Source: a virus (Duplodnaviria; Heunggongvirae; Uroviricota; Caudoviricetes). Taken from it: 37,812 bases of DNA. The position numbers were made by a program, and so were the translations under genes. Of the stretch, positions 8,473 through 11,722 are shown in pieces; the first letter of the stretch is position 1, and every line of letters starts with the position of its first letter. The notes under the pieces are model-generated. The model was not told the DNA's origin. It searched no databases and saw nothing but the letters and a program-made list of their open reading frames with translations. The DNA is taken from positions 1-37,812 of the IMG/VR virus record IMGVR_UViG_2778261419_000004; one strand, given 5' to 3'.

Positions 8473-8580
8473 ATGAAATCAAAAATCAAATCGCTACTGG
8501 TTGCTGGTTATAACCACGGCTGGTTAAGTATTTCGTTTGTCGATTTCTGGTTTAAAAATCTCAATCTGAGGGAATCATGA
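8473..8580 (+). CDS. Possible small ORF (35 aa) coupled to the primase-helicase gene
   Basis: Hand-translated MKSKIKSLLVAGYNHGWLSISFVDFWFKNLNLRES; its stop overlaps the ATG at 8577 (ATGA). Could be spurious. Confidence 0.2.
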   Translation: MKSKIKSLLVAGYNHGWLSISFVDFWFKNLNLRES

Positions 8581-10457
8581 CGCCAAGTGAACTTAGCGAC
8601 CTGCTTTGGGCGCAGGTTGACAGGGTGGCTCCGCACCTGTTGCCAAACGGCAAGAAAGAGGGGCATGAGTGGGTTGCCGGTAACGTCAATGGTGACAAGG
8701 GAAACAGCCTTAAGGTCAACCTTAGCGGCAAGAAAAAATGGGCTGATTTCGCTGAGGGAGACGGCGGTGACATGCTTGATTTGTGGATGGCATGTCGTGG
8801 AATTAACCTGCATCAGGCTATGCAGGAAGCGAAAGCATTTCTCGGTATCAAGGATGACGATCACCATTTCGATGCCAAACGTGAGAAAAAATTCTCCAGA
8901 CCTGATCGCAAGAAAATCGCCCGCTACGTTACCAGAACAGAATCCCATCTTGAGTACCTGCAATCGCGTGGCATATCGCCAGAAGTCGTAAAGCGCTACG
9001 AGGTTGTCAGCGGCAAGGTGTGGAATGGAGAACGAGAACTTGATGCACTGGTGCTTCCGTACAAACGCGATGGTGAGTTGTTGCAGGTCAAGCGAATCAG
9101 CACTGAGCGCCCGGACGGGAAGAAAGTCATTATGGCAGAAGGTGATTGCGAACCTTGTCTGTTCGGATGGCAGGCTCTGGACGCTGGCGTGAGGGCGGTT
9201 GTACTTTGCGAAGGCGAAATTGATTGTATGAGCTATGCGCAATACGGCATCTCGGCGTTATCCGTGCCGTTTGGTGGAGGGAAAGGCGCTAAGCAACAGT
9301 GGATTGAGTTTGAGTACCACAACCTCGACAGGTTTGAGGAAATATTCATCTCGATGGACGTTGATGATGTTGGTCGTGAAGCCGCAAGGGAAATCGCAAG
9401 CCGACTCGGTGAACATCGTTGCCGTCTTGTTACTCTGCCGTACAAAGACATCAACGAATGCCTGATGAACGGTGTTACCGAGGATGAAATCTGGCAGTAC
9501 ATCGGCACGGCATCCTACTTTGATCCTGAAGAACTCTACAGCGCGCGAGAGTTTTACCAGGACACTATCAACGCTTTCTACGGCAAGCAGCAGTATCTGT
9601 TTAATCCACCGTGGGAATCTCTGGCAGATAAATTCCAGTTTCGTGAGGCCGAGTTGACGCTGGTCAATGGTGTGAACGGTCACGGAAAAACGGAGGTTGT
9701 CGGGCATATGGCACTTGAGGCAATGCGTCAGGGTGTGAAGACGTGCATCGCGTCACTTGAGCTGAAGCCTGGTATTCTCCTTAAGCGCCTTACCCGTCAG
9801 GCGACGTGCTGCAAGATGCCGCCAGTGCTGGAAATTGACTCTGCATTTAAATTTTATGACGAAAGACTTTGGGTGTTTGGCCTGACTGGAACGGCGAAAG
9901 CCGACAGGCTGATCGAAATATTCGACTACGCTCGCCGCCGATACGGCATCCAGTTATTCATCATCGACAGCCTGATGAAATGCGGCATAGGTGACGATGA
10001 CTATAACGGGCAGAAAGCATTTGTTGACTCGATTTGTGACTTCAAAAACAAAACAAACTCCCACGTCATTCTCGTTACTCACTCCAGAAAAGGAGACAGC
10101 GAAGAAAAACCAACCGGGAAAATGGACGTAAAAGGCTCTGGAGCGATAACAGACCTGACAGACAACCTTTTCATCATCTGGCGTAACAAGGCTCGCGAGA
10201 GAGCGTTACAGAGAGTTCAGAGTGGTGAAAAAATGTCAGAGAAGGACGAACAGCTACTGGCATCTCCGGCATCTGTTTTGATGCTTGAAAAACAACGTAA
10301 CGGCGAAGGTTGGGAAGGTGGTGTCCCGTTGTTCCTTGACGAGCAATCGCACCAGTTCCTGCAACTTGAATCAGGATCGCCTTATAGCTACATCGCCAAT
10401 ATGCCGAAATCGGAATATGACGAGGCGTGGCGACAGGAAAACGTGACGGAGTATTAA
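8577..10457 (+). CDS. Bifunctional DNA primase-helicase (TOPRIM plus DnaB-like ATPase)
   Basis: 626 aa; TOPRIM-like VLCEGEIDCMSYAQYG and SMDVDDVGREAAREIA; Walker A GVNGHGKTEV and Walker B LFIIDSL in the C-terminal half. Confidence 0.85.
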   Translation: MTPSELSDLLWAQVDRVAPHLLPNGKKEGHEWVAGNVNGDKGNSLKVNLSGKKKWADFAEGDGGDMLDLWMACRGINLHQAMQEAKAFLGIKDDDHHFDAKREKKFSRPDRKKIARYVTRTESHLEYLQSRGISPEVVKRYEVVSGKVWNGERELDALVLPYKRDGELLQVKRISTERPDGKKVIMAEGDCEPCLFGWQALDAGVRAVVLCEGEIDCMSYAQYGISALSVPFGGGKGAKQQWIEFEYHNLDRFEEIFISMDVDDVGREAAREIASRLGEHRCRLVTLPYKDINECLMNGVTEDEIWQYIGTASYFDPEELYSAREFYQDTINAFYGKQQYLFNPPWESLADKFQFREAELTLVNGVNGHGKTEVVGHMALEAMRQGVKTCIASLELKPGILLKRLTRQATCCKMPPVLEIDSAFKFYDERLWVFGLTGTAKADRLIEIFDYARRRYGIQLFIIDSLMKCGIGDDDYNGQKAFVDSICDFKNKTNSHVILVTHSRKGDSEEKPTGKMDVKGSGAITDLTDNLFIIWRNKARERALQRVQSGEKMSEKDEQLLASPASVLMLEKQRNGEGWEGGVPLFLDEQSHQFLQLESGSPYSYIANMPKSEYDEAWRQENVTEY

Positions 10458-10486
10458 ATGACCATCTACATCACTGAGCTTGTAAC

Positions 10487-10515
10487 AGGCCTGCTGGTAA
10501 TCGCAGGCCTTTTTA
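10487..10515 (+). terminator. Rho-independent terminator (tR2-like, before the nin region)
   Basis: AGGCCTGC-TGGTAATC-GCAGGCCT (8-bp stem) followed by TTTTATTT. Confidence 0.7.
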
Positions 10516-10534
10516 TTTGGGGGAGAGGGAAGTC

Positions 10535-11122
10535 ATGAAAAAACTAACCTTTGAAATTCGATCTCCAGCACATCAGCAAAACGCTATTCACGCAGTACAG
10601 CAAATCCTTCCAGACCCAACCAAACCAATCAATCAAATAACTCAGCAGAGACTTAAAGAAGTCCTTCTCTACGATGAGTTAACAGGGAAATTCACATGGA
10701 AAGTAAAGAAATGCCAGAGAATGAATGCTGGGGATATCGCAGGGCATAAGAGTAGCGAAGGCTACTGGGTAATAAAAGTCGATGGAAAACTTTATAAGGC
10801 ACACAGGCTGGCGTGGCTCTATATGAATGGCAGTCTACCAAAAAGTGATATCGACCACATAAATCTCGTTAGGGATGACAATCGTATAGCAAATCTTAGA
10901 TTGGCAACTCGATCTCAAAACATCCAAAACGTAAACAAAAAGGCAAATAACAAATCAGGATATAAAGGCGTTTCATGGGATAAGAAATCAAGAAAATGGA
11001 GGGCGCAAATCGTAATCAACAAGAGGAAAGTTAATCTTGGGTTTTACGATGACCCAAAGGAAGCTCATAAAGTATATGCAAATAAAGCGGATGAATGTTT
11101 CGGCGAATTTGCGAGGTATTAA
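10535..11122 (+). CDS. HNH homing endonuclease with AP2 domain, N-terminally fused to a NinB-like segment
   Basis: First 32 aa MKKLTFEIRSPAHQQNAIHAVQQILPDPTKPI match the lambda NinB N-terminus as recalled; then HNH motif DHINLVRDDNRIANLRLATRSQN and AP2-like YKGVSWDKKSRKWRAQI...GFYDDPKEAHKVY. Track start 10517 is TTG. Confidence 0.8.
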   Translation: MKKLTFEIRSPAHQQNAIHAVQQILPDPTKPINQITQQRLKEVLLYDELTGKFTWKVKKCQRMNAGDIAGHKSSEGYWVIKVDGKLYKAHRLAWLYMNGSLPKSDIDHINLVRDDNRIANLRLATRSQNIQNVNKKANNKSGYKGVSWDKKSRKWRAQIVINKRKVNLGFYDDPKEAHKVYANKADECFGEFARY

Positions 11123-11123
11123 A

Positions 11124-11552
11124 ATGAAATGTGTCAAATATCACCTTACTAATGAATCTATAAGATATAACGCCATTCAGTATCTTAGGACATGCGATTT
11201 AGACATCATTGTCGAGTTTAAGCAGCGCAACCGCAGCTTAGACCAGAATCGAAAGCTTTGGGCTTGCCTTGGTGACGTCTCTCGTCAGGTTGAATGGCAT
11301 GGTCGCTGGCTGGATGCAGAAAGCTGGAAGTGTGTGTTTACCGCAGCATTAAAGCAGCAGGATGTTGTTCCTAACCTTGCCGGGAATGGCTTTGTGGTAA
11401 TAGGCCAGTCAACCAGCAGGATGCGTGTAAGCGAATTTGCGGAGCTATTAGAGCTTATACAGGCATTCGGTACAGAGCGTGGCGTTAAGTGGTCAGACGA
11501 AGCGCGACTGGCTCTGGAGTGGAAAGCGCGATGGGGAGACCGGGCAGCATGA
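11124..11552 (+). CDS. ninB: NinB (Orf-family recombination mediator)
   Basis: 142 aa from the ATG at 11124 (AGGTAT motif upstream); [37 protein letters not shown]...[11 protein letters not shown] matches lambda NinB as recalled. Confidence 0.85.
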
Positions 11553-11722
11553 TGCGATGTTATCGGTGCGGTGAATGCAAAGAAGATAACCGCTTCCGAC
11601 CAAATCAACCTTACTGGAATCGATGGTGTCTCCGGTGTGAAAGAACACCAACAGGGGTGTTACCACTACCGCAGGAAAAGGAGGACGTGTGGCGAGACAG
11701 CGACGAAGTATCACCGACATAA
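11549..11722 (+). CDS. ninD: NinD-like small zinc-finger protein
   Basis: 57 aa [32 protein letters not shown]... with CxxC...CxxC; start overlaps the ninB stop. Confidence 0.55.

Follow-up and report, generated by a model that had tools for sequence, protein, structure and literature searches.

Why should one phage gene appear to begin twice? The question is raised by the recombination-mediator gene ninB (orf) in a stretch of 37,812 nucleotides (nt) of viral DNA (IMG/VR record IMGVR_UViG_2778261419_000004, positions 1 to 37,812), which is referred to here as the window and is a P22-like or lambdoid Escherichia coli phage or prophage segment. An original prediction, made from the letters of the window and a list of its open reading frames (ORFs), described an ORF at 10535..11122 that starts with 32 codons of ninB and then switches to an HNH motif and an AP2 domain, followed from an ATG at 11124 by a 142-amino-acid (aa) ORF whose later part is again NinB, and proposed that a free-standing homing endonuclease gene had been inserted at the 5' end of its target with co-converted flanking sequence. 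The best explanation of the locus, drawn from sequence comparison, is probably that ninB has received a free-standing HNH-AP2 homing-endonuclease cassette by intronless homing at the codons for VTIQE.

The nuclease ORF and the hybrid ninB

The limits of the insertion were mapped by alignment to insert-free phages, as the original prediction had proposed. Identity to the cassette-free ninB of mEpX2 and Sf101 is continuous to position 10630 (...AAACCAATC) and is found again from 11226 (CGCAACCGC...), which places the junctions at 10630/10631 and 11225/11226, with 595 nt of cassette standing in place of the 18 nt GTAGTAACCATTCAGGAA, coding VVTIQE, of cassette-free ninB. The G+C content of the cassette is 38%, and 33% in its last 102 nt, against 54% in the ninB body, and this difference, together with a substitute N-terminus that is always found with the HNH gene, points to a foreign origin. 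Cassette-free alleles were found in mEpX2, Sf101, lambda, P27 and one Cronobacter-type contig and cassette-bearing alleles in E. coli, Salmonella and Cronobacter, so that there is a presence/absence polymorphism at one precise site. A microhomology at the original left junction, between TQER of the HNH protein and IQER of NinB, was also considered, it is unconvincing at 9 of 21 nt matching and is speculation only.

The first 32 residues of the fusion protein are indeed those of NinB, being 100% identical to lambda NinB 1-32 (PDB 1PC6; phmmer E 5e-15), and the switch to a nuclease that had been read from the letters is equally well borne out. Pfam HNH_3 matches fusion residues 87-129 with an E of 9e-17 and 60.8 bits against a cut-off of 24.8, and Pfam AP2 matches residues 141-181 with 29.4 bits, which is under its gathering score of 33.3. 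In an AlphaFold model built on 53 homologues the predicted local distance difference test score (pLDDT) is >90 for residues 37-195, with residues 1-35 forming a low-confidence, unpacked appendage of one lone helix (pLDDT 56-74). The top Foldseek match to the N-terminal half of the nuclease core is the HNH homing endonuclease I-HmuI (1u3e, probability 1.0), and the C-terminal half matches the plant AP2 domains of TEM1 and AtERF1 (probability 1.0, root-mean-square deviation 1.3-1.5 Å), by which the AP2 fold of the C-terminal domain is confirmed in the predicted structure. Residues D107, H108, N116, N120 and N132, which include the catalytic D-H, N and N, are invariant across the 53 nuclease homologues. 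Proteins with an N-terminal HNH and a C-terminal AP2 domain are a recognised homing-endonuclease family (PMC10448857), and the HRLAWL, DH, DNR and NLR motifs of the window nuclease agree with those of the free-standing HNN-AP2 endonucleases of Xanthomonas phages (PMC2248197).

Free-standing homologues of the nuclease are 160-168 aa long and start with M-[IL]-[TS]-Q-x-[RK]-L-K-E-L-L, a start that aligns with residues 34-44 of the window protein (QITQQRLKEVL). At the position of the ancestral Met (residue 34) the codon is CAA in the window and GAA in Cronobacter, and on reading the sequence no in-frame ATG, GTG or TTG is found between codon 2 and Met63, which lies inside the conserved fold. It is apparent from the reading frame that the nuclease core lacks a start codon, the frame opening at the ribosome-binding site and ATG of ninB and passing through 32 stranded ninB codons. 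The 195-aa ORF is intact in 29 of 29 other copies. Its annotation is another matter: RefSeq/PGAP gives a 117-nt 'HNH endonuclease' pseudogene and a 161-aa HNH gene (WP_223202053.1) with a non-canonical ATA start (window 10637), as seen in the RefSeq E. coli genomes of loci L003 (1578-2165) and L004 (1617-2204), and other annotations give versions of 164 or 172 aa. The annotation as a pseudogene fragment and an ATA-start gene makes the architecture invisible in public annotation, the ORF itself being unbroken in every copy.

Many relatives of the nuclease are longer, at about 260 aa (P0003, P0005, P0006, P0013, P0025, P0034, P0050, P0064 and P0067), and contain two tandem HNH-type modules, the first with a degenerate catalytic motif, for example KHRNG for DHING. 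These were considered as further fusions to a target gene and rejected, their length arising from tandem duplication of the HNH module.

The second ORF is ninB in its later part, just as had been claimed: residues 35-142 of the hybrid protein equal lambda NinB 39-146 save one difference, residues 5-124 match positions 4-131 of the Pfam NinB model (E 2e-46) and the match to 1PC6 has an E of 1.7e-73. One base separates the TAA of the nuclease (11120-11122) from the ATG of this ORF, and the GAGG that precedes the ATG is formed by Ala-Arg codons of the conserved nuclease C-terminus. NinB begins with a beta-alpha-beta unit, and in the dimer two of these make up the DNA-binding RAGNYA fold (Balaji and Aravind, PMC2034487), therefore the cassette would swap a whole structural module, and the right junction falls between this module and the helical C-terminal domain. 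The unbroken frame across that junction demonstrates that a full-length hybrid NinB is still encoded, with a foreign module of 34 codons joined to the resident body.

The original prediction had aligned this substitute N-terminus with the ninB codons upstream and regarded the two as a duplicated, diverged ninB 5' end. Homology stood: the 34 aa score 18.8 bits against a profile covering columns 1-38 of 103 natural NinB proteins, among which the substitute type is not represented, and the best of 1000 shuffles reaches 9.4. By itself the pairing of the two N-termini carries little weight, identity being confined to 6 positions in a gapless run over the first 27 residues, and the derivation from the upstream copy had to be given up. 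In a codon alignment the substitute is 40-49% identical in nt to the resident-type allele (blocks of 14/30, 13/30 and 9/21) but 72% identical to its counterpart in a Cronobacter cassette, and because of this the second N-terminus is, on nucleotide identity, not a duplicate but a xenologous NinB N-terminal module moving in company with the nuclease gene. It is four residues shorter than that of lambda, and both the shorter loop and IVE[FV]KQ in place of VTIQE are found in a minority of natural NinBs, such as P0173 and P0224 (YIVEVKE). The substitute accompanies the HNH gene in 8 of 8 E. coli genomes and in 10 of 10 further places and is present in 0 of 50,697 phage records, where a tblastn search with the 38-aa substitute segment gave one marginal match (Citrobacter phage Omnitron, E 0.07). 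A 55-aa protein search for its origin returned short fragments only, the candidates apparently being limited by length.

Spread of the cassette and its Cronobacter counterpart

The E. coli-type cassette is found in 18 other loci with at least 99.16% identity. It is carried by 8 of 5426 complete E. coli genomes, always as one chromosomal copy, with two of the eight giving two matches each in the genome search, and an index of public assemblies has the identical hybrid NinB protein in 595 of its blocks. The HNH gene ends 1 nt before the hybrid ninB in all 10 places inspected. The genes upstream of cassette loci vary and include those for a toprim helicase, a DnaB helicase, IstB-like loaders and hypothetical proteins, as well as an insertion sequence (IS) element; downstream dam, ninD, ninC or ninE is found. 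The IS element, with a DDE_Tnp_1 transposase on the minus strand, lies at L141 506-1714 (E. coli TUM1880, CP135706.1), where it is flanked by the toprim helicase gene and by ninA and comes directly before the cassette-bearing ninB.

The ninB alleles that are joined to the cassette vary too. On the 5' side there are at least two and a recombinant between them, Salmonella prophage L138 bears the cassette with a ninB body unlike that of the window, and on contig L021 it is joined to a very divergent P27-type ninB body. Among 16 cassette copies the nucleotide diversity is 0.115 in the left 96 nt (10 haplotypes) and 0.056 in the right 325 nt (13 haplotypes), compared with 0.005-0.007 in the cassette (5 haplotypes), which is 10-20 times below that of the flanks. 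The replacement of 18 nt by 595 nt, the many backgrounds and the low diversity all lend support to the earlier suggestion of a free-standing homing endonuclease gene that is fused in frame and has probably moved with co-converted flank.

A more distant version of the cassette is found in Cronobacter prophages. In protein P0002, of 192 aa and 66% identical over its full length to the window fusion, the nuclease is continuous in frame with a NinB N-terminus of the Cronobacter type, and in Cronobacter malonaticus (L132) a gene of this type is followed directly by a 142-aa ninB that starts MKTIRYHLIDESVRYNAIQFIRTCNLDLIVEVKQ, with the substitute N-terminus MKTIRYHLIDES... and the same GCGAGG-N-stop-ATG layout. 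The whole cassettes are 70% identical in nt, close to the value already given for the substitute N-termini. The ratio of nonsynonymous to synonymous substitution (dN/dS) between the two versions is 0.08 for the nuclease core, where dS is saturated, and 0.08-0.10 for the substitute N-terminus, which amounts to strong purifying selection, therefore both nuclease and substitute module appear to have been kept functional for long, travelling together.

Judged against the cassette-free Cronobacter-type allele L119, the foreign tract is longer in Cronobacter. It starts on the left after codon 27 and ends on the right at about codon 46, where RTRSLDQNRRLW is like the E. coli type and unlike the local KTRSVEQNKRLW. 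Variable conversion-tract ends are predicted by break repair (PMC2988022), and this is the pattern of tract ends between the two lineages. Locus L022 is truncated and the full Cronobacter locus was recovered only with a chimeric protein as query; scans of genome contigs and metagenomes with P0002 provided L119 and no further Cronobacter-type copies with downstream sequence.

A candidate homing site and the rival explanations

The replaced 18 nt code the most conserved stretch of the N-terminal module, with [TIV][IV]QE at this position in 94 of 103 NinB cluster representatives. Cassette-free alleles of the E. coli and Cronobacter types are about 60% identical elsewhere, yet GTAACCATTCAGGAA (VTIQE) is exactly common to both; around the presumed cut site cassette-free ninB reads CCAACCAAACCAATCGTAGTAACCATTCAGGAACGCAACCGC. 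The cassette-bearing allele lacks GTAACCATTCAGGAA, its substitute module coding the equivalent strand IIVEFKQ by other codons (ATCATTGTCGAGTTTAAGCAG). We infer that a conserved site that is replaced and a donor with altered codons would fit a homing site and an immune donor.

If the cassette homes in this way, transcription of the ninB region during lytic growth or induction would yield both proteins, with the nuclease made from ninB's own start. The nuclease would nick or cut the cassette-free ninB of co-resident lambdoid genomes at or near the VTIQE codons, and the cassette-bearing allele would provide the template for repair, with the ninB 5' end as left arm and the ninB body as right arm, so that repair copies the cassette in and co-converts flank of variable length. 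The cassette-bearing allele would itself be immune because the 18-nt core is gone and IIVEFKQ is written in different codons. As the cassette rebuilds a complete ninB, invasion may cost the phage little.

A number of points weigh against homing at ninB. The cassette is rare, the eight E. coli genomes that carry it comparing with 2085 that match a query region spanning ninB and its flanks, and it is found in 0 of the 50,697 sequenced phage records. The predicted cut site is taken solely from the position of the replacement, and the low diversity over many backgrounds could also stem from mosaic recombination of a recent module. A P27-type right arm has only 12 nt in common with a lambda-type donor, and some other form of recombination is the likelier source of this copy. 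As HNH relatives of the I-HmuI kind act as nickases, a double-strand break is not assured. The ancestral arrangement, in which an HNH gene lies upstream of a natural ninB with a substitute-type N-terminus, was not found, there being no HNH gene upstream of P0173 or P0224, the natural ninBs with the most similar motif, at the loci checked.

The serious rival is that the cassette is a passive mosaic module, acquired once by illegitimate recombination and then moved by general lambdoid recombination, its nuclease being inactive or having some other role such as competition or defence. The nin regions are highly mosaic and the flanks change within 100-325 nt of the cassette at almost every locus, the rarity of the cassette would fit, and the P27-type copy is beyond simple homology-driven conversion. 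This is nevertheless unlikely, since a cassette so much less diverse than the adjacent ninB sequence, with 30 of 30 ORFs intact, is not what a passive module would lead one to expect, and the dN/dS over so deep a split argues for an active protein. The replaced codons are moreover the most conserved of the region, as they should be in a homing site, and the adjacent ninA shows an analogous exchange of a gene end, where another HNH-AP2 gene, a relative of the first, is inserted. The fusion could alternatively be functional in itself, with residues 1-32 giving the nuclease a role in the Orf pathway, for example as a tether to NinB dimers or to DNA. The in-frame fusion has been retained in the Cronobacter lineage, which would favour this, but of the beta-alpha-beta unit only beta1-alpha1 is kept and no complete NinB module (PMC2034487), the NinB part is the low-confidence, unpacked portion of the model, its sequence tracks whichever resident ninB allele hosts the cassette and the arrangement is absent from most lambdoid phages, making a functional fusion very unlikely.

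Two NinB-type N-termini in the same orientation, 590 nt apart and aligning without a gap, might also result from tandem duplication of the ninB 5' end in place, with the downstream copy then diverging. It is highly improbable that they did, as an upstream copy that is 100% identical to lambda and a downstream copy of near-random nt identity are too uneven for one locus, and the downstream copy has its closer resemblance in the Cronobacter cassette, is AT-rich like the nuclease gene and, in its loop and its similarity to the IVEVKE motif, is like the minority of natural NinBs. The idea that the endonuclease ORF lies within a group I or other intron, or within an intein, that is spliced out to restore ninB would draw on phage HNH endonucleases often being intron-encoded and on the ORF being in frame with the upstream 'exon', it is scarcely credible here. 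A search of 10300-11700 for intron cores with Rfam, at E up to 10, found no intron family and sub-threshold noise only, so the non-intron reading of the original prediction holds, and an intein is ruled out by a stop codon at 11120 followed by a new ATG. Loss of 10631-11225 would delete the six conserved codons VVTIQE and not restore the uninterrupted gene, and the 34 substitute codons, which have a Shine-Dalgarno site and an ATG to themselves and have been constrained by purifying selection in both lineages, are sensible only if translated. Homing of a free-standing HNH-AP2 cassette therefore remains the preferred reading.

Gene context and comparison with known systems

The features of the locus are collected in Table 1. 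The upstream context at ninA is common to the window and to cassette-free phages.

Table 1. Features of the ninB locus, in window coordinates
Feature	Position	Strand	Evidence
Toprim primase-helicase gene	8577-10457	+	Rightward reading
ninA, small ORF with terminator-like hairpin (10487-10510 and T run)	10458..10538	+	Homologous 81-nt NinA annotated in Sf101
Resident ninB 5' end (ATG and codons 1-32), stranded; predicted nuclease translation start and N-terminal tag	10535..10630	+	Identity to lambda NinB, mEpX2 and Sf101
Fusion ORF, 195 aa: NinB(1-32), NQ (Asn-Gln) linker, HNH-AP2 core	10535..11122	+	Stop TAA 11120-11122
Putative mobile cassette, 595 nt, 38% G+C	10631..11225	+	Junction mapping, identity in other loci, diversity, G+C
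HNH_3 nuclease motif, residues 87-129 (HRLAWLY...DIDHIN...DNR..NLR...SQN)	10793..10921	+	Pfam, invariant residues, Foldseek
AP2-type DNA-binding domain, residues 141-181	10955..11077	+	Pfam below gathering score; model and Foldseek
GAGG, putative Shine-Dalgarno site for downstream ninB	11113..11116	+	Sequence; 7 nt before ATG
Substitute ninB 5' module (ATG and 34 codons), cassette-borne	11124..11225	+	Profile score, Cronobacter identity, dN/dS, G+C
Resident ninB body (lambda codons 39-146 and stop)	11226..11552	+	In frame with substitute 5' module
Hybrid ninB, 142 aa	11124..11552	+	Pfam NinB E 2e-46

Other endonuclease genes are found nearby. In P27-type ninB (Shiga toxin (Stx) phage P27, L136 775-1786; L021 3590-4100) the natural gene is already a mosaic, in which codons 1-42 resemble those of lambda (...KPIVVTIQERNRS) and identity falls to only about 28% beyond them, the break (RNRS/IRQN) lies 12 nt to the right of the cassette right junction, and the stop codon is overlapped by another endonuclease gene, of the NUMOD4/HNH type; endonuclease hot spots appear to flank ninB. 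At L137 640-1400 (E. coli Z1323CEC0006, NZ_CP148466.1; equivalent to window 10458-10538) a 203-aa HNH-AP2 gene, 40% identical to the window nuclease, lies inside ninA just upstream of an intact lambda-type ninB. The order there is shared codons, a divergent in-phase ninA 3' end, the nuclease gene and the native ninA 3' end with its terminator hairpin, which is the orientation of the Allomyces element discussed below and the mirror image of the ninB cassette. More HNH_3 genes lie beside ninF, ninG, ybcO and rusA (L008 6221-6727, L140 4801-5325, L141 3792-4358, L135 4262-4798), in cassette-bearing and cassette-free prophages alike, which suggests several independent endonuclease insertions in the lambdoid nin region.

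It is quite conceivable, though advanced here tentatively, that the ninB locus represents a previously undescribed phage strategy, a self-repairing cassette that replaces a gene end, having given up its own start codon for lasting use of the ribosome-binding site, ATG and first 32 codons of its target, and carrying a cut-immune xenologous copy of the whole N-terminal beta-alpha-beta module with which the gene behind it is rebuilt. The layout has been known before only as its mirror image in fungal mitochondria, intronless homing and insertions that split genes being already established. A selfish nuclease gene could by this means lodge within a phage gene that is still expressed, without harm to ninB, recycling its start signals and bringing a ready-made and presumably cut-resistant replacement for the part it displaces, and the principle of an endonuclease plus a foreign gene end would then hold for phages as well, and for the 5' side of a gene. 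If the strategy is general, and taken with the ninA insertion of L137, HNH-AP2 elements would be routine remodellers of lambdoid gene ends and would seed mosaic junctions such as the break in P27-type ninB, and some reported 'NinB-HNH fusion proteins' could be the footprints of insertion, an endonuclease fused to the end of its target, and not functional fusions. The locus would offer a concrete candidate homing site in the well-studied nin region of lambda and could help to explain how certain abrupt mosaic junctions within lambdoid genes came about.

No account of this arrangement came up in a full-text literature search that combined ninB with homing endonuclease. The nearest parallel is with the mobile-ORF hybrids of fungal mitochondria, in atp6 of Allomyces macrogynus and in atp6, atp9, cox2 and nad3 of Glomus, which provide a foreign C-terminus (PMC3630166). 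As in ninB, a free-standing endonuclease ORF is accompanied, as it moves, by a foreign version of one host-gene end, which takes over from the native end in the expressed gene while the latter stays behind, stranded, alongside. The native copy matches close relatives and the inserted copy diverges far more from them, and for some of these hybrids the ORF is also in phase with the host gene. The ninB cassette is the mirror image, it brings a 5' end and thus an N-terminus, which needs its own Shine-Dalgarno site and ATG, and the stranded piece is the 5' end, reused as the putative translation start of the nuclease. It is also found in a bacteriophage and not in an organelle, and its nuclease is HNH-AP2, whereas the endonucleases of the fungal elements are of the LAGLIDADG or GIY-YIG types.

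Intronless homing is established for the free-standing seg and mob endonucleases of T4 (PMC2988022), which are likewise free-standing phage genes, and the mechanism expected for ninB is the same, a break in the genome that lacks the endonuclease, repair from the donor and co-conversion of flank, with the donor protected by differences in target sequence. The T4 genes are intergenic, are translated from starts of their own and have their cut sites some way off in an adjacent gene, whereas the ninB cassette lies within the very gene it is presumed to target, is read as a translational fusion with that gene and brings a segment to replace part of it. Insertions are also known by which a phage gene is split, mobE in nrdA of Aeh1 and mobA in the topoisomerase gene of T4 (PMC2988022), and these too place an HNH gene inside a conserved phage coding region without destroying the function of the host gene, for ninB as far as can be judged from its sequence. 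They leave two polypeptides that must reassemble; ninB, in contrast, is unsplit, its downstream ORF being completed by the substitute module and its upstream fragment becoming the leader of the nuclease.

The nuclease itself has the same domains as the HNH(HNN)-AP2 endonucleases of phages Xp10, OP1 and Xop411 (PMC2248197) and the IPA-HNH of ICP1 (PMC10448857), with the HRLAWL, DH, DNR and NLR boxes followed by AP2. These are free-standing, are regarded as homing and lie at recombination boundaries (PMC2248197; PMC10448857), and each is an independent ORF of about 160-170 aa that opens with a start of its own; neither fusion to a target 5' end nor a substitute gene end is reported for them. Finally, the NinB-HNH fusions of Gram-positive lambdoid phages also unite NinB and an HNH-fold nuclease in one polypeptide, they are NinB orthologues fused to a nuclease and have been read as functional collaboration (PMC2034487). 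Going by that description the window differs from them, as only 32 residues of NinB are fused to the nuclease and a separate, complete ninB follows.

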